A stretch of DNA of 64,000 bases from Methanofastidiosum sp. (GTDB taxonomy: Archaea; Methanobacteriota_B; Thermococci; Methanofastidiosales; Methanofastidiosaceae): the NCBI GenBank assembly GCA_020854815.1, contig JAHKLW010000019.1, positions 10,571-74,570 on the forward strand, read 5' to 3'. Shown here piece by piece: positions 7,641 to 41,880 of this stretch. The translations under genes were made by a program, and so were the position numbers. Position 1 is the first letter of the stretch. The number at the start of each line of letters is the position of its first letter. The notes beneath the pieces were generated by a model that was not told the DNA's origin, did no database searches, and saw only the letters and a program-made list of their open reading frames with translations.

Positions 7641-9253
7641 GGGCAGTTCTTGCAACAATAGGGAATTGTATTCACGTTCAAGGAATAAAAAACTTTGAAA
7701 ATTTGTTGATTAGAAATAATATTGATACAGAATTTATTGGAGTATGTGTTGATACAGACAAACTGATAAAAATCATTTTAGAAAAAAATCCCGATATTAT
7801 AGGTCTAAGTTACAGGCTTGAACCCGAAACTGCTAAAATATTATTCAAAAAGTTGAAGAATTCTATTGAAGATAATAAAATTAAATCTAAGTTTTTCTTT
7901 GGAGGAACTCCTGCTGTGTGTGAAATTGCTGAAGAATCTGGACTATTTTCAGGGGTTTTTAGAGGAATAGAAACTGAAGAACAGATACTTGATAAAGTCC
8001 TTGGGAGAGAGGGCGAGTTTAATTCAGTAGAGTATTCTCAAGATCTCTATGAAAGAATTCAAAAATCTTATCCCTTTCCTTTGATAAGACATCATTTTGG
8101 GTTACCTTCTCTTGAAAAAACAATTGAAGGTGTTAAAGAAATTGCAAATAGTAAAACTCTTGATATCATATCCATAGGGCCAGATCAAATAGCACAAGAA
8201 TGTTTTTTTAATCAAGGAAATATTTGTAAAGAGTTCGAAGGTGGTGGTGGGGTACCCCTTCGAAAAAAGGAAGACTTAGGTTCTATATATGAGTCATCAA
8301 GAGTGGGTAACTATCCTCTTTTGAGATGCTATGCTGGCACAAATGATTTGATAAAATGGGGCGATATGTTAAAAGAAACAATTAATAACGCTTGGGGAGC
8401 AATACCCCTGTTCTGGTATTCAGAACTGGATGGGAGGTCAAAAAGGGATTTAGTTAGTGCAATTACTGAAAACCAAAAAACTATAAAATGGCATGCAGAG
8501 AACAATGTTCCAGTTGAGATTAATGATTCACACCAATGGGCCCTTAGAAAAACTACTGACCCCATTGAAGTTGCCTCTGCTTATATCGCAACATATAATG
8601 CTAGAGAACTAGGAGTTAAGTACTACATCCAACAGTTTATGATGAATGTGCCCCCAGAAATTTCTCCTGAGATGGATATTGCAAAAATGTTAGCAAAACT
8701 AGAGATTATATCCGAATTATCAAATGAAGATTTTACAATTCTAAAAATGATAAGAACAGGTCTTGCCTCTCTTTCTGTCGATGAAAACATAGCAAAAGGA
8801 GAACTTGCTTCGTCAATTACAATTGGTATGTATCTAAAACCACATATTGTTCATGTAGTGGGATATTCAGAAGCATATAACGTAGCAACGCCATACGTCA
8901 TCATTGAAAGCTCAAAAATTGCAAGAGGCGTAATAAAAAATTGTCTTAAAGGATTACCTAGCATAGAAGATAACAAGAGGATACTAAAAAGAAAAGAAGA
9001 GATAATCGAGGACACTCGATTGATTATTGAAACTTTGAAATTACTTGGCGAAAGTTCAGATCCTTTAAAAGATCCCTATTCTCTCTATAAAGCTGTTAAA
9101 GTTGGCCTTATGGATGCAGAAAATTTGAAGGGATTTGATCCCGCAAAGGGGACAATTAAAACAGCCGTGATAGATGGAATGGTTCGATGTATTGATGAAA
9201 ATAATGGAGAAGTACTATCTGAGAAGGAGAGAATTAAGAGATTACGTATATAA
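7637..9253 (+). CDS. Uncharacterised protein with N-terminal cobalamin (B12)-binding-like domain
   Basis: Residues 3-110 follow the B12-binding Rossmann pattern: 'AVLATIGNCIHVQG' (the DxHxxG position reads CxHxxG), 'DIIGLSYRL', 'FFFGGTP'. The C-terminal domain of about 400 aa is unassigned. The start overlaps the upstream gene (ATGA). Confidence 0.45.
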   Translation: MRAVLATIGNCIHVQGIKNFENLLIRNNIDTEFIGVCVDTDKLIKIILEKNPDIIGLSYRLEPETAKILFKKLKNSIEDNKIKSKFFFGGTPAVCEIAEESGLFSGVFRGIETEEQILDKVLGREGEFNSVEYSQDLYERIQKSYPFPLIRHHFGLPSLEKTIEGVKEIANSKTLDIISIGPDQIAQECFFNQGNICKEFEGGGGVPLRKKEDLGSIYESSRVGNYPLLRCYAGTNDLIKWGDMLKETINNAWGAIPLFWYSELDGRSKRDLVSAITENQKTIKWHAENNVPVEINDSHQWALRKTTDPIEVASAYIATYNARELGVKYYIQQFMMNVPPEISPEMDIAKMLAKLEIISELSNEDFTILKMIRTGLASLSVDENIAKGELASSITIGMYLKPHIVHVVGYSEAYNVATPYVIIESSKIARGVIKNCLKGLPSIEDNKRILKRKEEIIEDTRLIIETLKLLGESSDPLKDPYSLYKAVKVGLMDAENLKGFDPAKGTIKTAVIDGMVRCIDENNGEVLSEKERIKRLRI

Positions 9254-11921: not shown

Positions 11922-13088
11922 TCATCTTTTCACCTTAACACTCTGTTTGATAAGACCTTCCCACTTGTTGCCTTCCAAGCCCAGTTCAATGCCTGCCATC
12001 TGTGCGGGTGTCTTGCCATTCAAAGCTTGGTGTGGTCTTATGAAGTTGTAATACGCCTTGAAGCCGTCAACAAAGTCCTTTGAAGGCTCGACCTTCTTCA
12101 ATCCTCTCTGCACTTTGTTCCTCTGCCTCATCGAACCGTGAAGCCTTTCTATCTTGTTGTTGTTCCGTTCCTTGTTTGTGATTGCTATTTCCCTGATGTG
12201 CGTTGTGTTCCTCCCGTCGCCTTTTCGGTGTGTCTGGAACTCTTTTCTTACCGCTTCTTGGTAGGCATTAAGGCCGTCAGAAACTAAAATGGTTGGCGTA
12301 ATTCCAGTCACTTGCTTTGCCTCTTTCATCGGCAGTCTTGCGGTATCGACATCCCTTGTCTTACCTTCCGAAATCATGGACGAAATAAGAAAGCGTGTAT
12401 CCGTGTCCATCAAGTTCCAGAGCCAGTTCCATTCACCGTTACACTTCAAGGCCATCTCGTCTATCGCCCACATGCCGGACACGTCGGGAGTAAGTGTCCT
12501 TGTATAGTCTGAAATCAAGGATAGGTATTTTCTTATCCATCGTGATACTGTGGACTGATTGACGGTCACGTTGTAGAACTGTGCCAAGTGCTGTGCTATG
12601 TCGTTCTGTGACACGCCTTTGAAGTACAAATCAAGAGAGAGGACTATTACCCTCTGGTCGCTTGTGTTGTACTTGAACCCGTCATCAATAGAGAATCGCT
12701 TGTTACAGTCCTTGCACTGGTACATCTGCTTCATGTTGTTCTTATTCTTTCTAAATCCTTTCTTTGATAGATTGGTAGAGTTGCAGTTCGGGCATTTTGT
12801 TTTTGTGTCCTTTTTTGGTGTGAATATTCTTGCCTTTGCTTCATCTTCAATCCTGTTTTTCAACTTCATCCAGAATTTCACGGCGTTGATATGCTTGCAC
12901 TCTGCATGCCTATAGAAGTGGTCGGGACAATTGCATGTCCAGACTTTGTAGCCGTGCCTTACCAAATAATACCCTTTTCCACTTTGCGAGTGGATTTTAA
13001 ACTTGTCGTGACTGACCTCGATTGGTTCGTCACCCTTGGCTATGATTGCATAGCCCCTAATCATTCTACTGTTTGTGGTTAATACCAT
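11922..13088 (-). CDS. DDE transposase, IS6-family-like with N-terminal SWIM/zinc-ribbon extension
   Basis: Catalytic triad context 'WAIDEM', 'ILVSDGLNAY', and 'NNNKIERLHGSMRQR', an IS26-like E-x6-R signature. N-terminal 'CNCPDHFYRHAECKH' and 'CPNC...CKDC' zinc fingers. This block is about 47% GC against about 32% around it. Confidence 0.7.
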   Translation of the reverse strand: MVLTTNSRMIRGYAIIAKGDEPIEVSHDKFKIHSQSGKGYYLVRHGYKVWTCNCPDHFYRHAECKHINAVKFWMKLKNRIEDEAKARIFTPKKDTKTKCPNCNSTNLSKKGFRKNKNNMKQMYQCKDCNKRFSIDDGFKYNTSDQRVIVLSLDLYFKGVSQNDIAQHLAQFYNVTVNQSTVSRWIRKYLSLISDYTRTLTPDVSGMWAIDEMALKCNGEWNWLWNLMDTDTRFLISSMISEGKTRDVDTARLPMKEAKQVTGITPTILVSDGLNAYQEAVRKEFQTHRKGDGRNTTHIREIAITNKERNNNKIERLHGSMRQRNKVQRGLKKVEPSKDFVDGFKAYYNFIRPHQALNGKTPAQMAGIELGLEGNKWEGLIKQSVKVKR

Positions 13089-15843: not shown

Positions 15844-16491
15844 ATGGTAAGTTTCAAAATGAACTTAATTAATGATGTTTTTTCTAAGGATTATATTAAC
15901 GATTATAATCATCAAATTAAGCATGTAAAAGATTCAGTTTTGACACTTGAAGAGGCGATAAAACTTCTAGAAAAAGAATGTATTTCTGAAATGGATGACA
16001 AATGCAAAATAGTAATGGAGCTAGAAAATGAAGCCAAATTCTATGAAGATAAACTAAAAAAAAGCTTTGAAAAGGGTCGATTACTAGGTCCGAACGGATC
16101 GAAATATGCTGAAATATCTAAAATTATGGGAAGTATTGGTGCAAAGGCCAGATCAGCCTCAGACTTATTGATTAATTTGAAAAATGATAAACTAACTAAA
16201 GATATTATTAGAGATTTAGTAAAGTTAGTAGAAACTGATGAGAGTATCACAAGGGAGATATATCTTACGATGAAAAAAGTAGAAGATATTGACGAAGAGA
16301 AAATTAATAGATTTTCTAAGAAAATAATAAAGAAGAAAATGGAAGTTGACGAGATATCTAGATTACTATTAAATAATTATACTAAACAAGCAGAAAAAGA
16401 AAATTTATCCGAGTCATTCAAGGACTTAATTATTATATTGAAAGATATCCCTGAAGATATAGAAAATGTAGCTTTAATACTTAATAGATAA
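15844..16491 (+). CDS. Hypothetical all-helical protein
   Basis: 215 aa, charged and coiled-coil-like. It lies immediately upstream of the ABC-2 transporter genes. Confidence 0.3.
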   Translation: MVSFKMNLINDVFSKDYINDYNHQIKHVKDSVLTLEEAIKLLEKECISEMDDKCKIVMELENEAKFYEDKLKKSFEKGRLLGPNGSKYAEISKIMGSIGAKARSASDLLINLKNDKLTKDIIRDLVKLVETDESITREIYLTMKKVEDIDEEKINRFSKKIIKKKMEVDEISRLLLNNYTKQAEKENLSESFKDLIIILKDIPEDIENVALILNR

Positions 16492-16504: not shown

Positions 16505-17404
16505 ATGAAAGTGATAGAAATAGACAATGTTACGAAAAAATACAATGACAGAATAGCCGTGAATAATTTCTCTTTTATTGCTGAAAGTGGCAAAATTTAT
16601 GGATTTTTAGGTCCAAATGGAGCGGGGAAGACAACTACAATAAGAATGATAATGGGAATAATAGCTCCAGATTCGGGTAGTATCCAAGTATTTGGAAAAA
16701 AATTATCCGAAGAAAGTAAAGAAAGAATTGGGTATATACCTGAAGAGAGAGGTCTTTATAAGAAATATAAAGTTTCAGATCTTTTGCTTTATTTTGGGAG
16801 ACTTAAAGGTTTAAATTCAGAGGATGCTAGAAAAAACACGTTGCTATGGCTTGATAAAGTTGGCCTTAAAGATAGGGCCAATAGTAAAATAGAAGAACTT
16901 TCTAAAGGAATGCAACAAAACATTCAGCTTATTGTATCTCTGATAAATAATCCGGATCTAGTAATATTAGATGAACCTTTTGTAGGACTTGATCCGATCA
17001 ATACAAGGAATATGAAGGAAATTATTTATTCTTTGAAAGAATCAGGCAAAACAATAATTTTTTCTACTCACCAAATGAATGAAGCTGAGAGACTTTGCGA
17101 TCACATATTACTAATCAATAAAGGGACAAAGATAATAGACGAGCCTATAGAGGAAGTAAAAAAGAAATATTCAAAGAATTTTATTTCGGTTGAGTTTAGA
17201 AATAGGTTAGTAAATCTAGACGACATAGATATAATTCAAAATGTTTATTATGAAGGGAATAAAGCTGAGATAGAACTAAGAAAAAATACTAATTATAATG
17301 ATCTTTTGGAAGTCTTGATACACAAGGGAGATATAACTAAGTATGAAATCTCTGAATCTTCACTTGAGAGCATCTTTGTTGAGGTAGTGACAAATGGGAT
17401 CTAA
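16505..17404 (+). CDS. ABC transporter ATP-binding protein (ABC-2 type)
   Basis: Walker A 'GPNGAGKTTT', signature 'LSKGMQQ', Walker B 'ILDEP'. Confidence 0.9.
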   Translation: MKVIEIDNVTKKYNDRIAVNNFSFIAESGKIYGFLGPNGAGKTTTIRMIMGIIAPDSGSIQVFGKKLSEESKERIGYIPEERGLYKKYKVSDLLLYFGRLKGLNSEDARKNTLLWLDKVGLKDRANSKIEELSKGMQQNIQLIVSLINNPDLVILDEPFVGLDPINTRNMKEIIYSLKESGKTIIFSTHQMNEAERLCDHILLINKGTKIIDEPIEEVKKKYSKNFISVEFRNRLVNLDDIDIIQNVYYEGNKAEIELRKNTNYNDLLEVLIHKGDITKYEISESSLESIFVEVVTNGI

Positions 17405-18587
17405 AACAAAAATAGTTGCAGTAACTGAATTTCTGACTAATGTAAAAAGAAAGGAATTTATTATTCTCACCTTTCTTCTTCCTTTAATACTAGTAATGTC
17501 AATGATTATTCCGGTATTTTTCATGCAGACAATATCTCACGAGAAGGAATCACTTGGGGTAGTCGATGAAACAGGTATTGTTTTACCAATTCTTAAAGAA
17601 AGGTATAACGACTATATTATAAAAGACCTATTAAGCGCTGAAGAAGCCAGACAACTCCTTGAGAATAATAACATATCAGGCTATTTAATAATTCCAAGCG
17701 ATTTTATAAACGTTGGGAAAGTCTCATATTATTCAAAAGTTCAATTATCGACATTTTCATCGGCTAATATGAATCTCGAGGCTATACTCTCTGACATCGT
17801 TATTGAAGGCCTCCTAGAAGAAAAGAGGGTTTCTAAAGAAATCATAACAAAAGTTAAGAATCCGATTGAAATGGAAAGAATTACAGTAACTAAGAAAGGT
17901 GAAGAAGTTGAAACGCCTTTTTCTTTTGTCGGGAATTATCTTCTTCCACTATTTTTATTCATGTCAATTATGAATGCAGGAGGATACCTCCTAAATGGGA
18001 TAATTGAAGAAAAAGAAAACAAGGTAGTTGAGGTATTACTTTCAACAATATCGTCTAATGAACTACTCTCAGGAAAGATTTTAGGTTTAGGGGGTTTAGG
18101 GATATTACAGATTAGTATTTGGATGAGTGGGATAGTAATCATAACTTCATTCTTAAAAATCCCCTTAGTTTCTCTAGAAAAAGGTATCTTAATAATGGTA
18201 TTCTTCGTTTTGGGGTACCTATTCTATTCGTCATTATTTGCAATAATCGGTTCTATCTCAACTAGCACTAGAGACTCCCAGCAGATATCTGCATTGGTAT
18301 CGTTTTTAGTCTTTATCCCTCTATTATTGTTTTTTGGGATAGTTCAGAATCCAAATATGGCATTCATAAGATTGCTCGGTATGGTGCCCCCTTTTATTCC
18401 AACAATAATGATGATGAGGATTCTACTTTCTGAAGTTGCAGTAGTCGACATAATCATCTCAGTAATCATACTTTCTATTTCTCTGATAGTTTCAGTAAAA
18501 ATTGCATCGAAAATATTCAAAATAGGTATATTGAGATATGGAACTAAGCCCAGTTTCAATGAAGTATTAAGGTGGGTAAGGGGATAA
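17394..18587 (+). CDS. ABC-2 family transporter permease
   Basis: N-terminal TM helix, a large extracytoplasmic loop, then 5 C-terminal TM helices. Translationally coupled to the ATPase. Confidence 0.75.
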   Translation: MGSKTKIVAVTEFLTNVKRKEFIILTFLLPLILVMSMIIPVFFMQTISHEKESLGVVDETGIVLPILKERYNDYIIKDLLSAEEARQLLENNNISGYLIIPSDFINVGKVSYYSKVQLSTFSSANMNLEAILSDIVIEGLLEEKRVSKEIITKVKNPIEMERITVTKKGEEVETPFSFVGNYLLPLFLFMSIMNAGGYLLNGIIEEKENKVVEVLLSTISSNELLSGKILGLGGLGILQISIWMSGIVIITSFLKIPLVSLEKGILIMVFFVLGYLFYSSLFAIIGSISTSTRDSQQISALVSFLVFIPLLLFFGIVQNPNMAFIRLLGMVPPFIPTIMMMRILLSEVAVVDIIISVIILSISLIVSVKIASKIFKIGILRYGTKPSFNEVLRWVRG

Positions 18588-18593
18588 ATTCTC

Positions 18594-19376
18594 ATGAAAA
18601 GAATAGGGATAGTAGTATGCCAGATATTTGAGGATGAATTACTAGAAATACTTGGGAGTTTCCCCGAAATAGACAAGATATTGATTTATTATAATGAAGC
18701 CTCTAAAGCATTTCAGGAGATAGCTGCCAAAAATCTCCCTCCAGAAAAATTTAGGATAGTAAGAGAGTTATGTTCTGTGAGATTTTTGAAGAGAGAAAGT
18801 GACTTTGAAGTACTTTTGTACCTACTCCCTCTTGCCTTGCATGTAGATCCTCCATTGATAAAAAATGAAGTGGCTTCGGCAGCAAAAGAGTTAGAAAAAC
18901 ATGTTGATTACCTAGTAGTGTTTTTTGGACTTTGCGGGAATTCTCTTGGGGATGTTGAAGCTTTAATGAAAGAAAGCAAGGTAGAAGTTCCAGTTGTTAT
19001 ATTAAAAGATAGTCAAGGAGAAATTGTTGATGATTGTGTTTGTGCATTGATAGGATCAAGAAACAGCTACGTAGAAACAATAAATGAGGAACCTGGCACA
19101 TGGTTTATGACATACGGCTGGGCAAAATATTGGAGAGAGTTGTCATGCGAGACTGTGGGGTCCTTTGACATCAATAAAATGAAGCTTGTGTTTGATAAAA
19201 CAGGATATAAAAGAACTGTTGCTGTAGATCTTGATTTTGGAGACAAAGAGCTTTATTATGAAAGATGTAAAGAGTTTTCAGAGATTTTCAATCTACCAGT
19301 TTGTCATAAAAAAGGAGACATAAATATATTAAAGAAAGCCCTTGGAAAGGCCATAGAAGAGGTATTAGATGATTGA
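18594..19376 (+). CDS. Conserved Cys-motif protein, DUF1638-like (paralogue 1)
   Basis: Motifs 'IGIVVCQIFEDEL', 'GLCGNSLG', 'DDCVCALIGS', 'TYGWAKYW'. Clear paralogue of 39946..40761. Confidence 0.45.
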   Translation: MKRIGIVVCQIFEDELLEILGSFPEIDKILIYYNEASKAFQEIAAKNLPPEKFRIVRELCSVRFLKRESDFEVLLYLLPLALHVDPPLIKNEVASAAKELEKHVDYLVVFFGLCGNSLGDVEALMKESKVEVPVVILKDSQGEIVDDCVCALIGSRNSYVETINEEPGTWFMTYGWAKYWRELSCETVGSFDINKMKLVFDKTGYKRTVAVDLDFGDKELYYERCKEFSEIFNLPVCHKKGDINILKKALGKAIEEVLDD

Positions 19377-20580
19377 CCTTACAAATATCTTGTTGATATT
19401 TTTATTCGCAAAGATATTTGGCGATATTGCAGAAAGGAAAAATATTTCAAGTATTGTAGGCCATGTTATTTGTGGTATAGCATTTGGGCCATTTGTATTG
19501 GGGATAATTTATCCTGGTAAAGAAATAGAAGTGCTGGCCGATATCGGGCTTTTAGTGATAATGCTTTATGCTGGACTTACAAGTGAGTATAAGGAATTAT
19601 TAAAAGCCAAGTATACAGCCATTATTATTGGGGTATTCGGTGTCATTACTTCTTTTGTTTTATGTTTTTCAGTTCCCTGGCTTTTAGGGTTTGGGTTAAT
19701 TCCTTCCTTATTTGTTGGAATCATCCTTACAAACACTGCTGTTGAGATTATAGGGGGGATGGTAGCAAATGAAAGCAATCAGAACGTATCCCACATCCTC
19801 CTTGGGGCTTCTTTTTTTGATGATATAATTGCCATATACCTAGTTGGATTACTGTCAACTATTACAGTTAATCAATCAACATTTAGTCTAGTAGATATAG
19901 GAAACGTGACACTAAAAATAATAATCTTTTTTGTAATTACTATTCTGATAAGTGAATTTTTAATTTCTTCTAAGGGTAAAAGAATTGTTAAATATTTAGT
20001 TGAAGGTGACCAACACCAGTCCATTATGATTGTATTTATTTTCACACTGGTTTTTGCTCTTTTCGCATCTTTTATAGGGCTTCATGAAGTCATTGGTTCA
20101 TTTCTTGCCGGCCTTGTACTTAGCAGGATAAAAGAAAAAGAGGACCCAATGTTATCTTTTAGGATTAGATTTAATGAGGTAACTAGTGAGATGAATACTT
20201 TAATGAGATTTTTATTTATGCCACTATTTTTTGTATATATCGGGCTTTTGTTTAATCGTGAAAATACTCAGATAAATATTCCACTCATAATTTTATTGTT
20301 CATGGGGGCCATGGGTGGAAAGATAATAGGATGTGGTTTGGCCAGTAAACTTTGTAGACTGAACAACAGAAATTCACTTCTTATTGGGGTAGGAATGTGT
20401 GGCCGAGGATCTCTAGAACTTGCAATTGTAAGGTATGGATTTTCTAACGGTGTTATATCAAGTGACTTATACTCATCAATAGTGATAGTTACGCTGCTTT
20501 CTATACTAATTACACCAATCTTATTTGGTAGATTAATAAAGAAATCAGATGTGAATTTCTATGATGTCTCCGTCCCGTAA
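19369..20580 (+). CDS. Monovalent cation:proton antiporter (CPA family, Na+/H+ exchanger-like)
   Basis: About 12 TM helices and a CPA-like pattern. The start overlaps the upstream gene. Confidence 0.6.
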   Translation: MIDLTNILLIFLFAKIFGDIAERKNISSIVGHVICGIAFGPFVLGIIYPGKEIEVLADIGLLVIMLYAGLTSEYKELLKAKYTAIIIGVFGVITSFVLCFSVPWLLGFGLIPSLFVGIILTNTAVEIIGGMVANESNQNVSHILLGASFFDDIIAIYLVGLLSTITVNQSTFSLVDIGNVTLKIIIFFVITILISEFLISSKGKRIVKYLVEGDQHQSIMIVFIFTLVFALFASFIGLHEVIGSFLAGLVLSRIKEKEDPMLSFRIRFNEVTSEMNTLMRFLFMPLFFVYIGLLFNRENTQINIPLIILLFMGAMGGKIIGCGLASKLCRLNNRNSLLIGVGMCGRGSLELAIVRYGFSNGVISSDLYSSIVIVTLLSILITPILFGRLIKKSDVNFYDVSVP

Positions 20581-28627: not shown

Positions 28628-30070
28628 CTAAACAAGTCTATGTTGAATTGGAGGTACATAACTAGCTACTTTCTTGATTTTAAAATCATTTTCTAAAAGA
28701 GATTTAATCTGTAATGGCGGAACTCCCAAGGATATTTCTCTTGTTCTCCCATATCTTCCCTTACTAACAACTTTTGCGTTTAGAATACCAAGCATATCCA
28801 GTTCTGATATCAAATCAGATACTCTTCTTTGAGTAAGATTATCAAGTTTCAAAATATTGCTTAAGTCTTTGTATATGTTAAATACATCTCCTGTAATAAT
28901 CTCCCCAGGCATGTATTTTTCTAAAAGGTATACAGAATAAAGAATAAGTTTTGATTGTGTGGGAAGTGTTTTAATTACTTCAGAAATTCTATCCTGTTCA
29001 ATTCTATCCTTTGCAACTCTTACGTGAGGTTCTGTAACTTTTTTGGCATTTTGTCTTTCAGCTATCTCACCGGCTGTTCTTAAGAGGTCAAGAGCCCTCC
29101 TAGCGTCTCCGTGCTCTTGAGCTGCGAAAGCTGCACAAAGTGGTATTACACCAGGAGTGATTGCTGATTCATTAAACGATATTTTTGACCTATCTTCCAA
29201 TATATCCATTAGTTGCGGTGCATCATAAGGCGGAAATATAATTTCCTCTTCACCAAGAGAGCTCTTCACTCTAGGGTCCAAAAACTCGATGAATTTTAAA
29301 TCATTTGAAATGCCTATGATACTGACCCTAGCGTTTTCCAAGTCCCCATTAATTCTCGTTAAATTATAAAGAACATCATCTCCTCCTTTTTTGAGGAGCT
29401 GGTCAACTTCATCAAGAATAATAATAACAAGTTTCTTTTCACTATCAAGACTCTGAGAGAAAACGTCATAGATTTTATCTGTAGGCCAACCCGTAAGGGG
29501 AACTGACTGACCAAAGTATTCGGATAATTTTGATAGTAGCCTATATTGAGTATCTACTACTTCACAATTAATATAAATAAAAGTAATTGGCATATCCATT
29601 TTAACATTTGAATTAAGATCAGGTTTTGGAAGTCCTGTATTACAATCAATTGAAGGAGAAGTTTTCAAAAATGCCTTCCCACCAACTTTTTTTACAAGGC
29701 CGTTTCCAACATATTTTACAACGACTGTTTTACCTGTCCCAGTTTTACCATAAACAAAAATATTTGAAGGTGTTTCACCTTTAAGTGCGGATACTAATAT
29801 AGCTGCAAGTTTTTCAATTTCATTTTTTCTATGTGGTAATATTTCAGGAGTATATGAATGGCGTAAAACTTCTTTATTTTTAAAAATTGAATTAGACAAA
29901 AGAAGTTCATCAAATAAGTCATCGAGTGATGATTGTTTATTTGACATGAAATCTTCAACACTTGAAGCAATAGTATATTGTAGCTCCTCTTTGTCTGAAA
30001 CTTCAGAGAAAGTTTTTGTCTTAGAATTTTCGTCGTATTTTAAAGGTATTCCTGCGTTGTCACCATTCAA
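28628..30070 (-). CDS. orc1: Orc1/Cdc6 replication initiator
   Basis: 'LPHRKNEIEKLA', Walker A 'GKTGTGKT', Walker B 'IILDEVD', a sensor region, and a C-terminal winged helix. An N-terminal extension of about 70 aa. Confidence 0.9.
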   Translation of the reverse strand: MNGDNAGIPLKYDENSKTKTFSEVSDKEELQYTIASSVEDFMSNKQSSLDDLFDELLLSNSIFKNKEVLRHSYTPEILPHRKNEIEKLAAILVSALKGETPSNIFVYGKTGTGKTVVVKYVGNGLVKKVGGKAFLKTSPSIDCNTGLPKPDLNSNVKMDMPITFIYINCEVVDTQYRLLSKLSEYFGQSVPLTGWPTDKIYDVFSQSLDSEKKLVIIILDEVDQLLKKGGDDVLYNLTRINGDLENARVSIIGISNDLKFIEFLDPRVKSSLGEEEIIFPPYDAPQLMDILEDRSKISFNESAITPGVIPLCAAFAAQEHGDARRALDLLRTAGEIAERQNAKKVTEPHVRVAKDRIEQDRISEVIKTLPTQSKLILYSVYLLEKYMPGEIITGDVFNIYKDLSNILKLDNLTQRRVSDLISELDMLGILNAKVVSKGRYGRTREISLGVPPLQIKSLLENDFKIKKVASYVPPIQHRLV

Positions 30071-30119
30071 TTATATCACACTACTACTTTACTAATAACT
30101 ATCCTTTTTATATATTTCT

Positions 30120-30145
30120 CCCACCCCCTTATTTCCTTTGGAGAT
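30120..30145 (-). repeat. Origin recognition box (ORB-like) 1
   Basis: The reverse complement ATCTCCAAAGGAAATAAGGGGGTGGG carries a TCCA..GGA dyad plus a G-string, like archaeal ORB elements. Confidence 0.55.
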
Positions 30146-30149
30146 TTAC

Positions 30150-30395
30150 TTTAATAAAAAAAATTTGATTGAAAAGAAAAGAATCTGCACTATTTTAAAG
30201 AAACAGAGGTTAATTTGGCCTTTTCTATAATAATATCTTTTAGTTAAAATTTAAGATTATATAGATTTAATCTGTGTTTGTTTGCTCAAATGATTTTTAT
30301 GATAGGAAAAATTTATATAGTTAAAAAAACATATTTAATTAGGAATCTATAAAAATTTGTATTAGTTAGTAAAAACAAATAATAAAAATTTGTTT
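30150..30395. other. AT-rich duplex unwinding element of predicted oriC
   Basis: About 245 bp of more than 85% A+T, lying between inverted ORB-like boxes and next to orc1. Confidence 0.5.
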
Positions 30396-30420: not shown

Positions 30421-30458
30421 GTAAATAATAATTTAAATGAATATTCCATTATTCTATT

Positions 30459-33954: not shown

Positions 33955-35073
33955 GTGGTAGTTATTATGAAGGATAAATCATTTTTCATAGTTTTAATTT
34001 TATTTTTCTTAGGAATATTTTTCATGCCAATCAATTCTCCAGTATTTCAAGAATCATTATTTAGCGCCTTTTACCTTCTTCACGACTATGCAAGATTACA
34101 TTTTCTGACATGTTTAGTTCCTGCAATGTTTATCGCTGGCGCAATAAGTATTTTTGTAAAAAAAGATGTTGTATTGAAATATCTTGGCAGTGAAAGTAGT
34201 AAACTTTATTCTTATTCAATAGCATCTGTTTCAGGATCTATACTTGCGGTATGTTCTTGTACCATACTCCCACTATTTGCATCAATTAGGAAAAGAGGTG
34301 CAGGATTAGGGCCTGCAATAACTTTCTTGTTTTCAGGACCTGCAATAAATATCGCCGCTATATTTCTTACTTTTAGTGTTTTAGGATTTGATATTGGATT
34401 AGCTAGAGTTATTTCTGCAGTTGGGCTGTCCATTATTGTTGGTTTATCAATGGCCTTAATTTTTAGAGAGAGATCGGAAGGTGGCAAACTTTATTTAGAA
34501 GAAAGTGCACAAGTTTCAGTTTCCTCAAAAATATTATCTATGTTTTTCTTATCATTAATAATGATCCTAGTAGTAAATGGTTTATCAATAGGCCTGCCTC
34601 TGAAATATACTCTCACAGGGATTCTAGTTTTAATCGTGGCTTTAATCGTGATTTTTAAGTTTTCTAAAGAAACTTCAAAGTCATGGCTCAATGAAACATG
34701 GCATTTTGCAAAAATGTTAATCCCTCTTCTTTTTATTGGTGTCTTTATAGCCGGATTCATAATGCCATTACTCCCACAACATTTGATAGAGCAGATAGTA
34801 GGTAAAAATAATCTCTTAGGAAATCTAATCGCTTCTGTCTTTGGAGCATTTATGTACTTCTCAACGTTGACTGAAATACCTATATTACAAGCACTAATAT
34901 CAAAAGGAATGGCCAAAGGCCCAGCTCTGGCCTTATTATTGGCTGGCCCTAGTTTGAGTTTACCTAATATGCTCGTGATTAGAAGGGTATTGGGTTCCAA
35001 AAGAACTATAGTTTATGTAATCCTAGTTGTTATATACTCCACAATCGCCGGATTTATATTTGGTATTTTATAA
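33955..35073 (+). CDS. Predicted permease (DUF318/UPF0718-like, 2x duplicated TM domain)
   Basis: About 10 TM helices and an internal 'SGSILAVCSCTILP' motif. This family often neighbours ArsR and redox-active disulfide proteins. Confidence 0.5.
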   Translation: MVVIMKDKSFFIVLILFFLGIFFMPINSPVFQESLFSAFYLLHDYARLHFLTCLVPAMFIAGAISIFVKKDVVLKYLGSESSKLYSYSIASVSGSILAVCSCTILPLFASIRKRGAGLGPAITFLFSGPAINIAAIFLTFSVLGFDIGLARVISAVGLSIIVGLSMALIFRERSEGGKLYLEESAQVSVSSKILSMFFLSLIMILVVNGLSIGLPLKYTLTGILVLIVALIVIFKFSKETSKSWLNETWHFAKMLIPLLFIGVFIAGFIMPLLPQHLIEQIVGKNNLLGNLIASVFGAFMYFSTLTEIPILQALISKGMAKGPALALLLAGPSLSLPNMLVIRRVLGSKRTIVYVILVVIYSTIAGFIFGIL

Positions 35074-35108
35074 TTTCTTATTGTTAAATATGTATAAATA
35101 TTTTATGA

Positions 35109-35558
35109 TTATGGCATCAAAACTTTGTCTATAGTATAGATTATTCCATTTGAGCAGCTTATATCCGGACTTATAACTGTTGAATTTTCAAGTTTGACAG
35201 TTTCAACGTCATTTGCGCAAAAACATAATATTGTTGGGGTCAGACTAACATCTTTCCCATTTAGGGTGATTAACTTATTTTTTTCTTCCTTCTTTATTTC
35301 TGCTATTTTTATAAGATCAGATACGGTGTATTTACCAGATACTATGTGAAACTTCAATATTTCTTCTAATTTAGTTTTATTATTTAAGAAATCCTTTAGG
35401 TCTCCTTCTTCTATTGTTGCAAATGCACTATCTTGTGGAACAAAGACTGTAAATGGACCATGGCTTGTTAAAAAATCCATTAATCCAGCAATTTTTACTG
35501 CATTGACAAAAGTATTAAAAATTCCTATATCTATAATAGTTTCAATAATATTCTTCAT
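35109..35558 (-). CDS. Fasciclin (FAS1) domain protein
   Basis: 'GPFTVFVPQDSAF' and 'LKFHIV...TLNG' FAS1 signatures. Confidence 0.7.
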   Translation of the reverse strand: MKNIIETIIDIGIFNTFVNAVKIAGLMDFLTSHGPFTVFVPQDSAFATIEEGDLKDFLNNKTKLEEILKFHIVSGKYTVSDLIKIAEIKKEEKNKLITLNGKDVSLTPTILCFCANDVETVKLENSTVISPDISCSNGIIYTIDKVLMP

Positions 35559-35600
35559 TAGATAACTTCCTATAGGGCTGTGATTATAAATTATATTTAA

Positions 35601-35924
35601 TTATTTCTTACATTCACAGTTTATGTTACCTTTTAGTATTTCTTTCCAATCCCCTAGTATATCATGTGTCCAACAATCGTCGGCGCCTGCAGCTTCTCTC
35701 ATCACCAAAGCAAAAATATAACTGAGTTCCTTTACTGTTGCCCCCGCTTCTAGAGCCCCTTTGAAATGTTTTAAGACACATGGTTTTGATCTAGCCTTAA
35801 TAGAAAGTGCAAAGCATATGAACTGATACGTCTTCTCATCTATTGTTCTTTTATCTTTGTATAGTTCGTCCATCTCGTCTAATAATTTTGTAAATTCAGG
35901 GAAGAATTCTTCTAACATTCTCAT
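35601..35924 (-). CDS. Carboxymuconolactone decarboxylase / AhpD-like family protein
   Basis: 107 aa with an AhpD-like helical core and a 'CxxH' region ('CWTHD'). Confidence 0.55.
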   Translation of the reverse strand: MRMLEEFFPEFTKLLDEMDELYKDKRTIDEKTYQFICFALSIKARSKPCVLKHFKGALEAGATVKELSYIFALVMREAAGADDCWTHDILGDWKEILKGNINCECKK

Positions 35925-35938
35925 ATATAATCCTCCAA

Positions 35939-36157
35939 TTATTTGATTCCAAGAATCTTATTAAGTTCCTCTTCTGATGGATTTCCAACTTTTACAACTT
36001 TTCCATCTATTAATATTGCTGGGCTACCCATTATACCTTCATTGATAAGATCATTAATATCAGAGCTGTATTCAACACTTGCATTTATTTTTTCCTCGTT
36101 TGCCATTCTTTTTATTTTTTCATACAGATTTTCGCACGTTGCACATCCACTTCCCAA
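35939..36157 (-). CDS. Thioredoxin-like small redox-active disulfide protein
   Basis: 72 aa, 'GSGCATCEN' CxxC and 'MGSPAILIDGKVV', a glutaredoxin/thioredoxin-fold mini-protein. Confidence 0.7.
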   Translation of the reverse strand: MGSGCATCENLYEKIKRMANEEKINASVEYSSDINDLINEGIMGSPAILIDGKVVKVGNPSEEELNKILGIK

Positions 36158-36176
36158 AACTTTTATTTTTATAGAA

Positions 36177-36449
36177 TCAATCCTCCTTATTTACTATATT
36201 TAGAATTTTCCCAACCCTAGGGTCTTTTATTTTATATAATATTTTTTTTCCATCTCTTCTTGATTCAATAATGTCCCAATCTTGTAATTTTGAGAGGTGC
36301 ATAGAAGTATTTGGCTGAGATCTTTTTATCAATTCAGGTATTTCACATGCACATCGTTCTCCAGAGACAAGTATACTTAGGATTTTGTATCTTGTAGCCT
36401 CTCCCATACCTTTAAGAAGTAGGATATTTCTTTTTTCATTTGAAGTCAT
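36177..36449 (-). CDS. ArsR/SmtB-family transcriptional regulator
   Basis: 'ATRYKILSILVSGERCACEI' HTH with a CxC metal/redox site. Confidence 0.8.
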   Translation of the reverse strand: MTSNEKRNILLLKGMGEATRYKILSILVSGERCACEIPELIKRSQPNTSMHLSKLQDWDIIESRRDGKKILYKIKDPRVGKILNIVNKED

Positions 36450-36650
36450 GTGCCATTATTTATATATTGATATATAAAGTTTTTCAAAAATATTTTCAAA
36501 AGATGATTTGTTGGATTAAATTATAAAACAATCTTTGATTTTGAATTATCAAAAACGTATTGTTTTGGATAATACCAAAATATTTATAAATATATTATAA
36601 ATAACTACTTATATGTTTATATATGAAATGCTACTCTGGAGGAATAAATA

Positions 36651-37148
36651 ATGAGAAAATACTTATCAATCCTTCTTATAATTACAACTTTATTAATATT
36701 TTCTGCATGTGTTAGCAACAGCGCAGAGAAGCCACAAACGAATACACAACCAAATACAAATCAAGGAAACACTAACACTGTTCCAGAAAAAGTAAATGTA
36801 TTAAAAGTTGAAGTAATTCATTTTCATCCAAGAGTAGGATGTGTCAGTTGTACTACATTAGGTGCATACACAGAAGAAACAGTTAATAAATATTTTTCAA
36901 AAGAGCTCCAATCTGGAAGAATTACTTTTAGACATGTTAATTATGAGCTAACAGAAAATCAGGAACTTGTCTTATTATATAGACCACCCGGCTCTGCATT
37001 GTGTATAGGGGTATACGATGATCAAGGTCACCTTTTCATTGAAGAAAACTATGGTGGCTGGTATCGACTTAACAATAAAGATACTTTTTTTCCCTATATG
37101 AAACAGCTTATTGAAATGAGACTGAATGGGGATCTTACCAAAATATAA
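36651..37148 (+). CDS. Lipoprotein with CxxC motif
   Basis: Signal peptide plus lipobox 'IFSAC', and 'VGCVSCTT'. Confidence 0.4.
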   Translation: MRKYLSILLIITTLLIFSACVSNSAEKPQTNTQPNTNQGNTNTVPEKVNVLKVEVIHFHPRVGCVSCTTLGAYTEETVNKYFSKELQSGRITFRHVNYELTENQELVLLYRPPGSALCIGVYDDQGHLFIEENYGGWYRLNNKDTFFPYMKQLIEMRLNGDLTKI

Positions 37149-37172
37149 TAGTCCTTTTTTATTGGTGATATT

Positions 37173-38138
37173 GTGGATCAATCTAACAATGATAAGATGC
37201 TGGATGATAAAATTCAACACTTGACAAAGTTATATCTTTCTCATGCTATTTCCAAAGACGAATTTGAATCTAGAAAGAAAGGGATACTGGCCTCATATTC
37301 GACAGATGTTATTAAAGACGAGAACAAAGAACTCCCTACAAAAAATAAATATCCAAATAAAATTTTATTAATAATTCCATTATTTGTTTTAATTATTGGG
37401 GCAGGATATTTATTCTTTACCAAAGGAAATACTATATCTTTAATGCCTTTATTTGAATCTTTAGGTAGAAGTAATATTCCTCTTATAGCAGCTTTCTTCA
37501 TAGGTTTAATGACTACAATAAGTCCGTGCCCACTTGCAACTAACATCACCGCTATAGCTTATATCTCTAAAAAAATAGGGAATAGTAAACACACAATTCT
37601 GGTAGGTATTATTTATACTATTGGTAGAATGATTGTATACATAGGTATAGCCGCAGTAATAGTATGGATTGGAATTAGTACATTTTCAATATCAATTATG
37701 CTTCAAAAATATGGGAAATTACTTTTAGGGCCACTTATGTTAGTTTTTGGTATTTTAATGCTTAACATCATCAATATTAGTTTTGGGAAAAGTAGCGAAA
37801 GAATGTCTAAGCTTAAGGAATATTTGTCTGAGAAAGGACTAATTGGGAGTCTATTATTGGGAATGTTATTCGCTTTAGCGTTCTGCCCAATAAGCGGTGT
37901 ATTTTACTTTGGCATGCTTATACCTTTGGCACTTCAGAACAGTGATCCAATCCTTATACCTTCGATATTTGCAATTGCAACAGGATTACCTGTAATCATA
38001 TTTTCACTAATATTAGTTTTCAGTGTTTCAAAGATTGGAGATGTTATGAAAAAAGTCCAAACTTTTGAAAAGTGGATGAGAAAAGCCGTTGCATTTATAT
38101 TTATTTTAGTTGGGGTCTATTATATGTTCCTTATATGA
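37173..38138 (+). CDS. CcdA/DsbD-family thiol:disulfide transporter with N-terminal SHOCT-like segment
   Basis: TM core 'LMTTISPCPLATNITAIAYIS' (DsbD_2 family) with 6 TM helices. The N-terminal 60 aa, 'ISKDEFESRKKGILASY', resembles a SHOCT motif. Confidence 0.6.
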   Translation: MDQSNNDKMLDDKIQHLTKLYLSHAISKDEFESRKKGILASYSTDVIKDENKELPTKNKYPNKILLIIPLFVLIIGAGYLFFTKGNTISLMPLFESLGRSNIPLIAAFFIGLMTTISPCPLATNITAIAYISKKIGNSKHTILVGIIYTIGRMIVYIGIAAVIVWIGISTFSISIMLQKYGKLLLGPLMLVFGILMLNIINISFGKSSERMSKLKEYLSEKGLIGSLLLGMLFALAFCPISGVFYFGMLIPLALQNSDPILIPSIFAIATGLPVIIFSLILVFSVSKIGDVMKKVQTFEKWMRKAVAFIFILVGVYYMFLI

Positions 38139-38270
38139 AGATAAACCTATAAGATTTTATTCTTTCTTAGGAATAATAAGTAGATTAAATAATGGTTAAT
38201 TTAATTTATAATAAAAAGCCTTTTATAATTAGTAATAATAGTTTAATAACTTACGATTGGAGGTAAAATT

Positions 38271-38762
38271 ATGAGAAAACTAATTGGAATATTCGTAGCA
38301 ATTATATTAACTGTTTCGATGTTGATAACGCCAATATATGCAGCCCAAAATACTCCGCCAACTCTCGAAGGCGGGGTTCTATTCTATACTTTCCAGGGAA
38401 ATACCTTTTCTTACAAATTTCAAGTTATGTATGAAGATGCCGATGGAGATTTACCTGCATATATGTTTGTCTACATTAACGGCTCTAGGAAATTAATGGA
38501 AAAACAAGATATTTCAGATAATAATTCAAAAGACGGCATTTTATATGTAGTACCATTATCTGAAAACGATTTATTTAAAATGGCCCCAAAGGCAAGAGGC
38601 TGGGAAATTGAATACTGGTTTAGAACTAACGATGGGCATGGTCCTGTAACTACTGCAAAATCAAACTTATTTGCATTAGACTATGATGCCATGGGTCTTG
38701 TATCCTCAAACTCTGCAGGCGGAAGCAGTTCTGGCGGTTGCAGTAGATGTGCAAGCGGATAA
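38271..38762 (+). CDS. Secreted hypothetical protein
   Basis: Signal peptide and a C-terminal Gly/Ser/Cys-rich tail. Confidence 0.3.
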   Translation: MRKLIGIFVAIILTVSMLITPIYAAQNTPPTLEGGVLFYTFQGNTFSYKFQVMYEDADGDLPAYMFVYINGSRKLMEKQDISDNNSKDGILYVVPLSENDLFKMAPKARGWEIEYWFRTNDGHGPVTTAKSNLFALDYDAMGLVSSNSAGGSSSGGCSRCASG

Positions 38763-38810
38763 TATTTTAATATTTATATTTTTTTATTCAATCCTTTGTA
38801 CGGTGTATAT

Positions 38811-39944
38811 ATGGAAGAAAATAAACATAAGAAAGGATTGGGTATATTTGAAAAATATCTCACTGTTTGGGTATTCCTCTGTATTGGCGCTGGAATAGTT
38901 TTAGGAAAAATAGCACCGACAGTTGCAGTAGCCATAGATTCATTTTCATATTATCAAGTTTCAATACCTATTGCAATCTGCCTATTCTTCATGATGTACC
39001 CTATAATGGTTAAGATTGATTTTTCAGAAGTTGTAAAAGCAGCAAAAACTCCAAAACCTGTTGGAATGACATTGTTTATCAACTGGGCGATAAAGCCTTT
39101 TTCTATGTTCGTCATAGCTTCATTTTTTCTTGGAGTTTTATTTAAAGGATACTTACCAGGAACTGAAATACTAATTACAGGCCAAGAAGTTGAACTTTGG
39201 AGAAGTTACATATCTGGAACAATTCTTTTGGGAATTGCGCCGTGTACTGCAATGGTCTTAGTTTGGAGTTATTTGGCTAGAGGAAACGATGGCCTTACCT
39301 TAGTAATGGTCGCCATAAATTCACTTACCATGCTATTCTTATATGCGCCTTTAGGTGGGCTATTACTTGGAGTAAACGCAATGCCAATACCCTGGCAAAC
39401 AATACTATTATCTGTTACAATATATGTTGGATTGCCACTACTTGCAGGCTATATTACAAGAAAACAACTTATTAAATCAAAAGGACTCCAATGGTTTAAA
39501 GAAAAATTCTTACATAGACTTACTCCTGTTAGTATTATTGCTCTTTTAATAACATTAGTGCTACTATTCTCTCTCAAAGGAGAATTAATAATTAATTATC
39601 CACTGACTATATTTTGGATTGCCATACCCTTGTTCATCCAGACTCTATTTATTTTTGCATTAGGATATTTTGCTCTGTCAAAAATCTTAAAACTTGGATA
39701 TAGAGATGCCGCTCCTGCATCAATGATAGGTGCTTCTAATCACTTTGAAGTTGCAATTGCAACAGCTACTACCTTGTTTGGTCTTTCATCTGGTGCAGCA
39801 CTTGCAACAGTTGTAGGTGTTTTAATAGAAGTGCCAACAATGTTACTTTTAGTTTCAATCTGTAAAAAAACATGCTACTTATTCCCAGGATGCGATCTTC
39901 CTTGGCCACAATGCAAAAAAAGTGCCAATAAATCTATTTTTTAA
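38811..39944 (+). CDS. acr3: Arsenite efflux transporter, ACR3 family
   Basis: '[20 protein letters not shown]' N-terminus and 10 TM helices, the ACR3 pattern. The start is trimmed to MEENK. Confidence 0.8.
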
Positions 39945-39945: not shown

Positions 39946-40761
39946 TTATTTTTCTATTTCTTTCAAAGCTCTATTGAATGAATCTCTTAATGAATTAATA
40001 GTTCCTTCTCTTATTACAACTTCACTATTAAAATGCGATGCAAACTCTTTGCATTTGGCCCTAAAATTAGACTTATCAATAAAATCAAGTTCTATACCTA
40101 TTACTCTTTTATAGTCAGAGCTTCCAAGAGTCAGATTAAACTTTTCTTTAATATTCATCTCAGATAACTCGGCCATTCTTTTTGAGTCAAGATTTCTAGT
40201 CTTTTCTTCCAAAAGTCTTGCCCAGTGTTTTGCCCAACCAGGAGTCATAAAAAAATTATTTGTGGTCTGTTCTAACTCTTTTAGATAATTTTCACTTGAC
40301 CCTATAAGGGCGCAGATACAATCATCCATTATCTCTCCCTTTTCATTAGTTAGAATATCAAACGGGACTATTATTTTGTTATTAATCAGTAATTCTCGTA
40401 TAGAACCTAAGGCATTACCACACAGCCCATAAAGTAGGAGTATATAATCAACATGCTTTTCAATTTCTTTTGAGGCGTTTACCACTTCTCTTTTGATATC
40501 TTCTGCATATAAGTGAAGTGCAAAAGGCAGGATATTAACAACTACCTCAAGAGGGGCTTGTCTTTTTAGAAATCTTGTTGAGCATAACTCCCTTGCAATT
40601 GTAATTTTTTCATAGTTGTATTTAGTTTCAAGCATTTTTTGAAACTCTTTTGAAGAATCACTTGATACAAGTATGATCCTTCCTATATTATCATATTCAG
40701 ATAGTAACTTTAACAGTTCTTCTTCAAAGATTTCACATGCAACTATACCTATTCTCTTCAT
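39946..40761 (-). CDS. Conserved Cys-motif protein, DUF1638-like (paralogue 2)
   Basis: 'IGIVACEIFEEEL', 'GLCGNALG', 'DDCICALIGS', 'TPGWAKHW'. The start is trimmed to MKRIG, removing a hydrophobic N-terminal extension from the track. Confidence 0.45.
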   Translation of the reverse strand: MKRIGIVACEIFEEELLKLLSEYDNIGRIILVSSDSSKEFQKMLETKYNYEKITIARELCSTRFLKRQAPLEVVVNILPFALHLYAEDIKREVVNASKEIEKHVDYILLLYGLCGNALGSIRELLINNKIIVPFDILTNEKGEIMDDCICALIGSSENYLKELEQTTNNFFMTPGWAKHWARLLEEKTRNLDSKRMAELSEMNIKEKFNLTLGSSDYKRVIGIELDFIDKSNFRAKCKEFASHFNSEVVIREGTINSLRDSFNRALKEIEK

Positions 40762-40849
40762 AATCTCTTGTCTAACGTTATTAGGTTTATTTAAAAGAAT
40801 TCTTATTATAATAGAAATATTTATATATGCGCATATATACATAAATATT

Positions 40850-41131
40850 ATGGATATGCAGGTAGAGATATTCAAAGCACTAGGCGATGAAACTCGTCTT
40901 AAAATTGTTAAATGCCTATTAATTCAAGAGTACTGTGCATGCGAGTTCACGTTTGATATTCAAAAAGACCAGACTACAATATCGAGGCATCTTAAGATTT
41001 TAGTCGATGCGGGTATATTAAAATCTGAAAAGAAAGGTAGGAATATTATCTACAGTATAAAAGACAAGGCCACAATCGACATGTTAAAAAATTTTGGCGT
41101 TGAAGGAATGGCGTGTTGTGAGGGAGATTAA
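40850..41131 (+). CDS. arsR: ArsR-family regulator (arsenic-type, CxC)
   Basis: 'LGDETRLKIVKCLLIQEYCACEF' plus a C-terminal 'CC' pair. The ATG is at 40850. Confidence 0.8.
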   Translation: MDMQVEIFKALGDETRLKIVKCLLIQEYCACEFTFDIQKDQTTISRHLKILVDAGILKSEKKGRNIIYSIKDKATIDMLKNFGVEGMACCEGD

Positions 41132-41133: not shown

Positions 41134-41880
41134 ATGAGAGATGAAGATATTAAGAGAATTGTAAGAGAAAATTATTCAAAAATAGCATCTTCTAACTGTG
41201 ATTGCAATTGCGGATGTGGAGGTGGGAATAATAATGAACTAATTGCTAAATCATTGGGTTATTCAGACACACAGATTGGAAATGTATCTGAGGCCAATCT
41301 TGGATTGGGTTGTGGAAATCCTACTGCACTTGGCGAGATAAAGGAAGGAGAAACTGTACTAGATCTTGGTTCAGGGGCAGGACTTGACTGTTTTCTTGCT
41401 GCAGATAAAGTTGGAGAAAAAGGAAAGACAATAGGTGTCGACTTCACTGAGACAATGGTCCAAAAAGCAACGCAAAATGCAAAAAAATATGGATATAAGA
41501 ACGTTGAATTTAGACATGGCGACATAGAAAATCTTCCAATTGATGATGGTTCGGTAGATGTCATATTAAGTAATTGTGTGATTAATCTTGTGCCTGATAA
41601 GGCCAAAGCCTTCAATGAAGCTCACAGAGTTCTAAAGAAAGGAGGAAAAATGTACATATCAGATATAGTCTTGCTTCAAGATCTAAGTGATGATTTAAGA
41701 AAAAATGAGATGCTTCTTGTTAGCTGTATTGCGGGTGCAATATTAAAAGAAGATTACCTTAAAATAATCAAAGATACAGGATTTGAAATCTTTACTACCT
41801 CTAGTGATGAAGAAATAAGCATAAGGCAATATTATGGATTGCCTATTGAAAGTTTGAGCATTGTAGCAATAAAGAAATAA
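41134..41880 (+). CDS. arsM: Arsenite S-adenosylmethionine methyltransferase
   Basis: Cys-rich N-terminus 'CDCNCGCGGG', 'LGLGCGNP', SAM motif 'VLDLGSGAG', and 'ILSNCVINL'. Confidence 0.85.
   Translation: MRDEDIKRIVRENYSKIASSNCDCNCGCGGGNNNELIAKSLGYSDTQIGNVSEANLGLGCGNPTALGEIKEGETVLDLGSGAGLDCFLAADKVGEKGKTIGVDFTETMVQKATQNAKKYGYKNVEFRHGDIENLPIDDGSVDVILSNCVINLVPDKAKAFNEAHRVLKKGGKMYISDIVLLQDLSDDLRKNEMLLVSCIAGAILKEDYLKIIKDTGFEIFTTSSDEEISIRQYYGLPIESLSIVAIKK

Follow-up and report, generated by a model that had tools for sequence, protein, structure and literature searches.

The closest described relatives of the two archaeal genes treated here, which are called A and B and belong to the DUF1638 family (PF07796), are bacterial. 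In Phaeobacter inhibens, the DUF1638 gene PGA1_c13340 is cofit in transposon fitness assays with three pieces of a split B12-dependent MetH and with a RamA-like activase, its mutant is rescued by methionine, and across the alpha-proteobacteria the phyletic pattern of DUF1638 matches that of the RamA-like gene; no specific function was proposed for DUF1638 by the authors (PMC5764234). The Ruegeria pomeroyi orthologue SPO2162 has been treated as part of cobalamin "recharging" and is induced together with RamA on methylated substrates (PMC12478193). Corrinoid methyltransferase systems power methylotrophic methanogenesis as well as acetogenic demethylation and the catabolism of marine osmolytes, and DUF1638 is among the few of their recurrent components without an assigned biochemistry. 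A and B lie within a 64,000-nt stretch of Methanofastidiosum sp. DNA (assembly GCA_020854815.1, contig JAHKLW010000019.1, positions 10,571 to 74,570), referred to below as the window.

Like PGA1_c13340 and SPO2162, A and B match the PF07796 hidden Markov model (HMM) strongly and carry the signature C...E-E, L-H, YGxCG, DDC and GW..W. They differ from the bacterial forms in being long, with an extra beta-alpha-beta segment (approximately residues 25-70), and in their gene neighbourhoods, since neither is beside corrinoid genes and B is inside an arsenic resistance (ars) island. It is tentatively proposed, at somewhat less than an even chance, that DUF1638 is a Cys3-His accessory factor of corrinoid methyl transfer, of which B is the arsenic-stress copy. 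The domain family is known and annotated, and A and B are unexceptional members of it; what is new, as far as the literature on DUF1638 shows, is the Cys3-His signature common to the family, the paralogue fixed in the ars island of Methanofastidiosa, and the fact that paralogues have entered ArsR/SmtB efflux operons more than once.

Two DUF1638 paralogues and their conserved residues

The two genes are:

18594..19376, + strand: DUF1638 paralogue A, the housekeeping-type copy (260 aa; PF07796 at 117.2 bits)
39946..40761, - strand: DUF1638 paralogue B, the ars-island copy (271 aa from MKRIG; PF07796 at 105.9 bits)

Both HMM scores are far above the Pfam gathering threshold of 27 bits, and the proteins are 42% identical over their full length (BLASTP, E 9e-77). 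Family membership and paralogy, both claimed in a first-pass annotation made from the sequence, are thus borne out at the coordinates given there, and the four motif blocks that it quoted are present in both proteins (CQIFEDEL/CEIFEEEL, GLCGNSLG/GLCGNALG, DDCVCALIGS/DDCICALIGS and TYGWAKYW/TPGWAKHW). An NCBI protein from a metagenome-assembled genome (MAG) of Candidatus Methanofastidiosum matches A at 100% identity, and no NCBIfam model matches A or B. Because A, B and a third copy (locus L029) form one clade in 193 of 200 neighbour-joining bootstraps, the duplication that gave rise to A and B is placed within Methanofastidiosa. Orthologue identity across the same genomes is 81-90% for B and 72-95% for A, and the conservation of B, at least equal to that of A, argues that B is under purifying selection. 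A longer open reading frame for B, starting from the TTG at 40875, was rejected in favour of the MKRIG start because the extension would cross a conserved promoter and palindrome (see below). The B-type database entries P0025 and P0029 begin approximately 27 codons upstream (window 40762-40875), across the same two elements, and their starts are probably mis-called.

Conservation was assessed in 116 full-length representatives (50% clustering) and in 90 copies extracted from genomes, with residues numbered according to A. The conserved set is the same in both samples and comprises C9, E15 (with E13), L82-H83, Y111-G112-x-C114, D146-D147-C148, Y159, W180 and Y205; of these, C9, E15, L82-H83, Y111-G112-x-C114, D147-C148, Y159 and W180 constitute a signature found in A, in B and in at least 90% of the 116 and 90 sequences. 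The "invariant Cys and His pattern" noted at first pass therefore holds family-wide for C9, H83, C114 and C148, but C60, H103, C150 (the second Cys of DDC-x-C) and C225 are invariant within Methanofastidiosa only. One family member has three Cys in all, exactly C9, C114 and C148. A metal or Fe-S site on the family-wide residues, as suggested in the same annotation, is plausible. No canonical CxxCxxC cluster motif is present in A or B, the three invariant Cys and the His coming from separate loops.

AlphaFold2 models of A (predicted local distance difference test, pLDDT, 92.5; predicted template modelling score, pTM, 0.90) and B (pLDDT 88.6, pTM 0.87) have an identical order of elements in two alpha/beta lobes, a 12-residue insertion in B giving an extra helix at 193-200 in the second lobe. 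In the model, C9 ends strand 1, H83 follows the strand at 71-78, C114 follows the strand at 106-110 and C148 precedes the helix at 150-153, so that every invariant residue is predicted to lie in a loop or at the beginning of a helix, immediately behind a beta-strand, which is where ligand sites are usually found in alpha/beta folds. From this topology we infer that C9, H83, C114 and C148, with E15 and D147, would make up a single site that binds a metal ion, carries an Fe-S cluster or presents reactive thiolates. Sequence searches of the PDB with A and with the family profile returned nothing significant and hence no solved relative, and Foldseek against the PDB gave only matches with template modelling (TM) scores < 0.4.

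Association of the family with corrinoid methyl transfer

Six bacterial loci encoding short-form DUF1638 proteins were sampled, chosen only for the length of the surrounding sequence, and neighbours within 6 kb were read. A B12-binding corrinoid protein accompanied by an MttB-family or URO-D methyltransferase is encoded in five of the six, as is a RACo/RamA-type activase (5/6); the DUF1638 gene directly follows the corrinoid protein gene in three loci and overlaps a URO-D gene in one. Three of the six share one architecture and come from one sample, so that the counts correspond to about four independent cases. These neighbourhoods suggest that the family is a corrinoid methyltransferase accessory; it is not restricted to methanogens. 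Such surroundings are typical of DUF1638 but do not formally define membership. The function had been recorded at first pass as unknown, which is an understatement, since the fitness data tie DUF1638 to RamA-like B12 reactivation and the bacterial neighbourhoods agree. The RamA/RACo (RACE) activators, which co-occur and co-localise with DUF1638 in bacteria and are presumed to act in the same process, have no homology to A or B, and neither A nor B contains an ASKHA ATPase or ferredoxin domain (Pfam). DUF1638 is not mentioned in a paper on mlp methyltransferase gene clusters.

In the proposed mechanism, A and B would be soluble, two-lobed alpha/beta proteins with a single Cys3-His-carboxylate site, and DUF1638 would most likely act beside the ATP-dependent reductive activase RamA/RACo, helping the corrinoid protein to remain loaded and active in catalysis. 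Members of the Methanofastidiosum lineage are methanogens that depend on H2 and reduce methylated thiols (10.1101/548461, PMC9635834); since methane is formed in these organisms only via methyl transfer from methylated thiols, such a function would be central to them.

The distribution of the family depends on the form considered. Short forms (∼210 aa) are without the segment around residues 25-70 and keep the first Cys and all other conserved residues; this branch comprises at least 6,543 clusters at 90% identity, Nitrospinae and Chloroflexota among them, the records of cluster members being almost without taxonomy. An exhaustive search of 1.84 billion representatives with the long-form profile gave only 362 clusters at E ≤ 1e-3. 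A scan for long-form loci with one genome per species (query alignment A3) found 156 relatives, the best 80 of which come from Methanofastidiosa, Methanomassiliicoccales (the majority), Methanolobus, Methanosarcina, other Methanosarcinales and Methanotrichaceae, and place the long-form subfamily in methyl-dependent and acetoclastic methanogen orders. The first-pass statement that the family is largely restricted to methanogenic archaea is accordingly true of the long-form subfamily only, the much larger short-form branch being bacterial. Bins labelled Eggerthellaceae, Anaerovoracaceae and Bacteroides salyersiae (L060, L074, L082, L085 and L086) carry DUF1638 loci resembling those of Methanomethylophilaceae, and these "bacterial" long-form copies are probably due to bin contamination. 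Two Methanomethylophilaceae MAGs (L057 and L058) have two DUF1638 copies within approximately 2 kb, one of those in L057 being a short form.

Several further observations concern corrinoid genes. A hydantoinase_A/MutL-like ATPase (∼660 aa) recurs with DUF1638 and RACo in corrinoid methyltransferase clusters (L012 1-402, L094 1-1065, L095 8541-10541, L096 10196-12241), and in one bacterial corrinoid cluster a TusA/DsrE protein is encoded directly after DUF1638 (L094 6667-7290). Within the window, a 538-aa protein (7637-9253) is recognisable only by its N-terminal B12-binding domain, and its reading frame overlaps the stop codon of a gene resembling octopine dehydrogenase (6483-7640); both genes are kept together approximately 6 kb upstream of the A operon in another Methanofastidiosum genome.

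Genomic contexts of B and A

B is located in the ars island of the window, between the gene for an ACR3 pump and a divergent arsR-arsM pair. The features adjoining it are:

38796..39944, + strand: ACR3 arsenite efflux transporter, convergent with B (TIGR00832 equivalog, 396 bits, cut-off 283)
40789..40799, - strand: conserved TTCTTTTAAAT box, TATA-like (TTTTAAA), ∼29-35 nt upstream of the B ATG
40818..40843, no strand assigned: 26-bp palindrome TATTTATATATGC/GCATATATACATA (inverted repeat I4), candidate ArsR operator, overlapping the arsR TATA region
40850..41131, + strand: arsR, ArsR/SmtB metalloregulator, divergent from B (HTH_5; NF033788, 82.9 bits)
41134..41880, + strand: arsM, arsenite S-adenosylmethionine methyltransferase (NF008823, 317 bits, cut-off 263)

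These curated models uphold the context first reported for B. The stop codons of ACR3 and B are 1 nt apart, and the B/arsR intergenic region is 88 bp. B is divergent from arsR-arsM in all 10 of the B-type loci with enough flanking sequence, whereas the other flank varies, being ACR3 in some genomes and a 163-aa gene with ArsG, ArsF, ArsR and ArsP in others. A proposed check of co-occurrence with ACR3 and ars genes thus gave a divided answer, in that the constant partner of B is arsR-arsM (10/10) and not ACR3, which is beside B in some genomes only. By the operational definition of an ars operon gene, kept placement in an ArsR-headed ars cluster, B is such a gene. The remainder of the island spans 33955..38762:

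33955-35073, + strand: ArsP
36177-36449, - strand: second ArsR
36651-37148, + strand: ArsF-family protein
37173-38138, + strand: ArsG-family permease
38271-38762, + strand: 163-aa protein of no recognised family

The ArsF-family and ArsG-family genes (36651-38138) are homologues of an aromatic-arsenical detoxification system, found here in a methanogen ars island. DGC-domain (PF08859) proteins are encoded both in a Methanofastidiosa ars island (L003 13437-13799) and beside a DUF1638/URO-D/RACo cluster (L096 7862-8583).

In an alignment of the B/arsR intergenic region (A4), the palindrome hardly changes across 12 genomes, unlike the variable bases flanking it, and the TTCTTTTAAAT box, a putative promoter element of B judged by sequence, corresponds to conserved columns. 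The palindrome was also considered as a mark of an ars regulon and rejected, since it occurs once in the window and so provides no regulon-level support; the other arsR is preceded by a (TA)n palindrome that resembles it only loosely.

B would then be a duplicate fixed beside arsR-arsM, an arsenic-stress isoform expressed from an ArsR-controlled divergent promoter region. Arsenite, being thiophilic, would poison the Cys3 site, and in methanogens it also intercepts methyl-Co(III)/Co(I) corrinoids, so that an additional or substitute copy would allow methyl transfer to continue under arsenic stress. Arsenite and other soft metal(loid)s attack thiolate sites, and sources cited by PMC13262295 (Thomas 2011, Wuerfel 2012) describe them as reacting with methylcobalamin, cob(I)alamin and MtaA in a side reaction of methanogenesis; according to PMC13262295, the methylation of arsenic by methanogens is a side reaction that uses MtaA and methylcobalamin. 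Dimethylarsenite is demethylated by H2-dependent methyl-reducing methanogens, the genes for which are not known (PMC10579292). An extension of the proposal, which we consider speculative and rather improbable, is that B couples the corrinoid methyl-transfer machinery to arsenic under the control of ArsR, either by repairing or replacing a Cys3His factor and corrinoid proteins that lose activity when As(III) or other thiophilic metal(loid)s intercept methyl-Co(III)/Co(I), or by taking part in corrinoid-dependent (de)methylation of arsenicals by H2-dependent methyl-reducing methanogens.

A, by comparison, would be the constitutive copy, transcribed together with the genes for an ABC-2 exporter and a CPA2 antiporter. 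The other genes of its operon are:

15844..16491, + strand: first gene of the operon, 215-aa conserved protein of no known family (hyp215; no Pfam match; syntenic in 13 Methanofastidiosa loci at 48-71% identity)
16505..17404, + strand: ABC transporter ATPase, DrrA-like (ABC_tran and DrrA1-3_C; syntenic)
17394..18587, + strand: ABC-2 family permease, stop 6 nt before A (ABC2_membrane_3, 158.6 bits)
19369..20580, + strand: CPA2-type cation/H+ antiporter, membrane domain only (Na_H_Exchanger, 191 bits)

The antiporter start overlaps the A stop by 8 nt (ATGATTGA), and the 6-nt gap, the 8-nt overlap and the Pfam models together substantiate the earlier description of A as following an ABC-2 transporter and preceding an antiporter with overlapping start and stop. 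Assignment of the antiporter to CPA2 by TIGR00932 is a weak match of 119.5 bits, below the cut-off of 238.3. By tblastn, all A-type loci with enough sequence have the genes arranged as hyp215 - ABC ATPase - ABC-2 - A - CPA2 - (convergent GTPase); the full upstream set is present in 13 of these loci, and the order is kept down to 72% orthologue identity. A scan of the operon for sigma-70 promoters and terminators gave background levels, the sigma-70 model being ill-suited to archaea. As a lead only, KefF and KefG are, like A, soluble alpha/beta proteins encoded by genes translationally coupled to a CPA2 antiporter gene; they are ancillary subunits of CPA2 K+ efflux systems, flavodoxin-like quinone oxidoreductases that are not related to DUF1638.

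Resistance-linked copies in other methanogens and competing explanations

Outside Methanofastidiosa, most DUF1638 copies in methanogens are stand-alone genes among housekeeping neighbours, and clustering of the neighbours of 58 such loci recovered only housekeeping synteny, e.g., prolyl-tRNA synthetase (ProRS) and phosphoribosyl pyrophosphate (PRPP) synthetase. Copies linked to metal(loid) genes are the following:

L077, Methanotrichaceae MAG, all on one strand: ArsR - rhodanese - ACR3 (equivalog, 440 bits) - Fe-S protein - DsrE - DsrE - DsrH - DUF1638 - radical SAM
L046, Methanomassiliicoccales: MtaA-family methylcobalamin:coenzyme M methyltransferase gene ending 5 nt before DUF1638, with ArsP and ACR3 within 3 kb
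L059, L079 and L081, Methanoplasma and relatives: ArsR/SmtB regulator - "cadmium family" P1B ATPase - DUF1638, overlapping or adjacent

The P1B ATPases of L059, L079 and L081 are ZntA-like, have the CPC motif and are without an N-terminal metal-binding domain. Other neighbours of DUF1638 include an MntR/DtxR-type repressor (Methanomethylophilus alvus), a BCCT transporter (Methanolobus) and CobW GTPases. Several genomes with metal(loid)-linked copies carry two or three paralogues, as Methanofastidiosum does, and because the linked copies are on four separate branches of the tree, repeated recruitment into resistance contexts is indicated. The pair C148-x-C150 was tried as a mark of resistance-operon copies and rejected, being a Methanofastidiosa trait found in both A and B and absent from L046, L059, L077, L079 and L081. 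In a Methanosarcina MAG, a gene for DUF2284, predicted to be metal-binding, is directly upstream of DUF1638 (L050 668-1318), and NCBIfam lists an ArsM/DUF2284 fusion family, a further indirect ArsM link. Sulfur-relay genes adjoin DUF1638 in two unrelated loci, L077 (1013-7290) and L094.

Several findings weigh against the corrinoid reading and the stress role of B. No corrinoid methyltransferase, corrinoid protein or RamA gene is present in the A or B operon within the window, most Methanomassiliicoccales copies are among housekeeping genes with no informative neighbour, and the synteny of A is documented within one closely related lineage only. Among the aligned genomic copies no sequence feature distinguishes those in resistance operons from the others, and the gathering of the Cys and His residues into one predicted site is deduced from model topology only. 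The palindrome is (TA)-rich, is positioned towards arsR within the intergenic region, and is not repeated at other ars promoters, so that ArsR control of B, which we infer together with the stress-isoform role, is unproven.

An alternative explanation, which we regard as unlikely, is that DUF1638 is a cytosolic binder or chaperone of thiophilic metal(loid)s, in which the Cys3(His) site captures As(III), Cd(II), Zn(II) or Pb(II) and passes it to ACR3, ArsM or a P1B-2 ATPase, or simply buffers it (cf. ArsD and CopZ); in that case B would work for the ars system, and A perhaps for the ABC-2/CPA2 exporters. As(III) is usually bound by three thiolates, copies are found in ArsR/SmtB-headed efflux operons on four separate branches, CobW or MntR/DtxR genes are near DUF1638 in other loci, and the adjacent Zn/Cd-type ATPases are without N-terminal metal-binding domains, so that a separate metal-binding partner would make sense. 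ArsD/CopZ-type metallochaperones are likewise small cytosolic Cys-rich proteins encoded in ArsR-type efflux operons, a type of context shared by B and the L059, L079 and L077 copies. They are, however, unrelated to DUF1638 in fold and sequence (the Pfam scan of A and B found no ArsD or HMA similarity), and most DUF1638 genes are outside resistance operons, the bulk of the family being in corrinoid methyltransferase clusters or housekeeping contexts. Resistance-operon copies carry no additional metal-binding features, and the P. inhibens mutant is a methionine auxotroph and not metal-sensitive (PMC5764234).

The least probable of the alternatives, to which little credence is given, is a thiol enzyme, either racemase/isomerase-like or transferring sulfur or persulfide, with catalytic Cys, His and Asp residues and only indirect links to corrinoids and ars genes. 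A fold that may be racemase-like and the DsrE, TusA and rhodanese neighbours are consistent with it; membership of the Asp/Glu/hydantoin racemase superfamily receives no support from Pfam, in which A and B have no Asp_Glu_race match at E ≤ 1, or from PDB sequence searches. It is also conceivable, if rather doubtful, that the neighbourhoods are incidental, both copies having a generic family function and owing their positions to genome compaction and inherited synteny in one lineage. Transporters and ArsR-family regulators are common in archaeal genomes, all of the A/B synteny data come from one family-level lineage, and outside Methanofastidiosa no neighbour family occurs in more than 13 of the 58 loci, the recurrent ones being housekeeping. 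Yet the B-arsR-arsM unit has remained intact while the opposite flank was rearranged, the translational coupling of A (6-nt gap, 8-nt overlap) persists in orthologues with as little as 72% identity, and linkage to ars or metal-efflux genes arose again on three other branches.

If the corrinoid reading, with B as the arsenic-stress copy, is correct, extra DUF1638 copies in methanogens would be under metal(loid)-responsive control. On the less probable extension, in which B couples corrinoid methyl transfer to arsenic, the family as a whole would represent a point of methylotrophic metabolism that is sensitive to metal(loid)s and was repeatedly recruited into ArsR/SmtB-controlled efflux operons. 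The signature, the models and the repeated copies near ACR3, ArsM or Zn/Cd pumps provide testable handles on its role; they bear on the interference of arsenic and heavy metals with methane-forming methyl transfer, and are relevant to arsenic (de)methylation in paddy soils (PMC10579292).

Elsewhere in the window, an IS240-type DDE transposase gene (11922-13088, - strand) is absent from the syntenic stretch of L001 and is therefore probably a recent insertion. A Cdc6/Orc1 gene (28628-30070, - strand) is followed by a 390-bp non-coding gap (window 28628-30458), which is possibly a replication origin.
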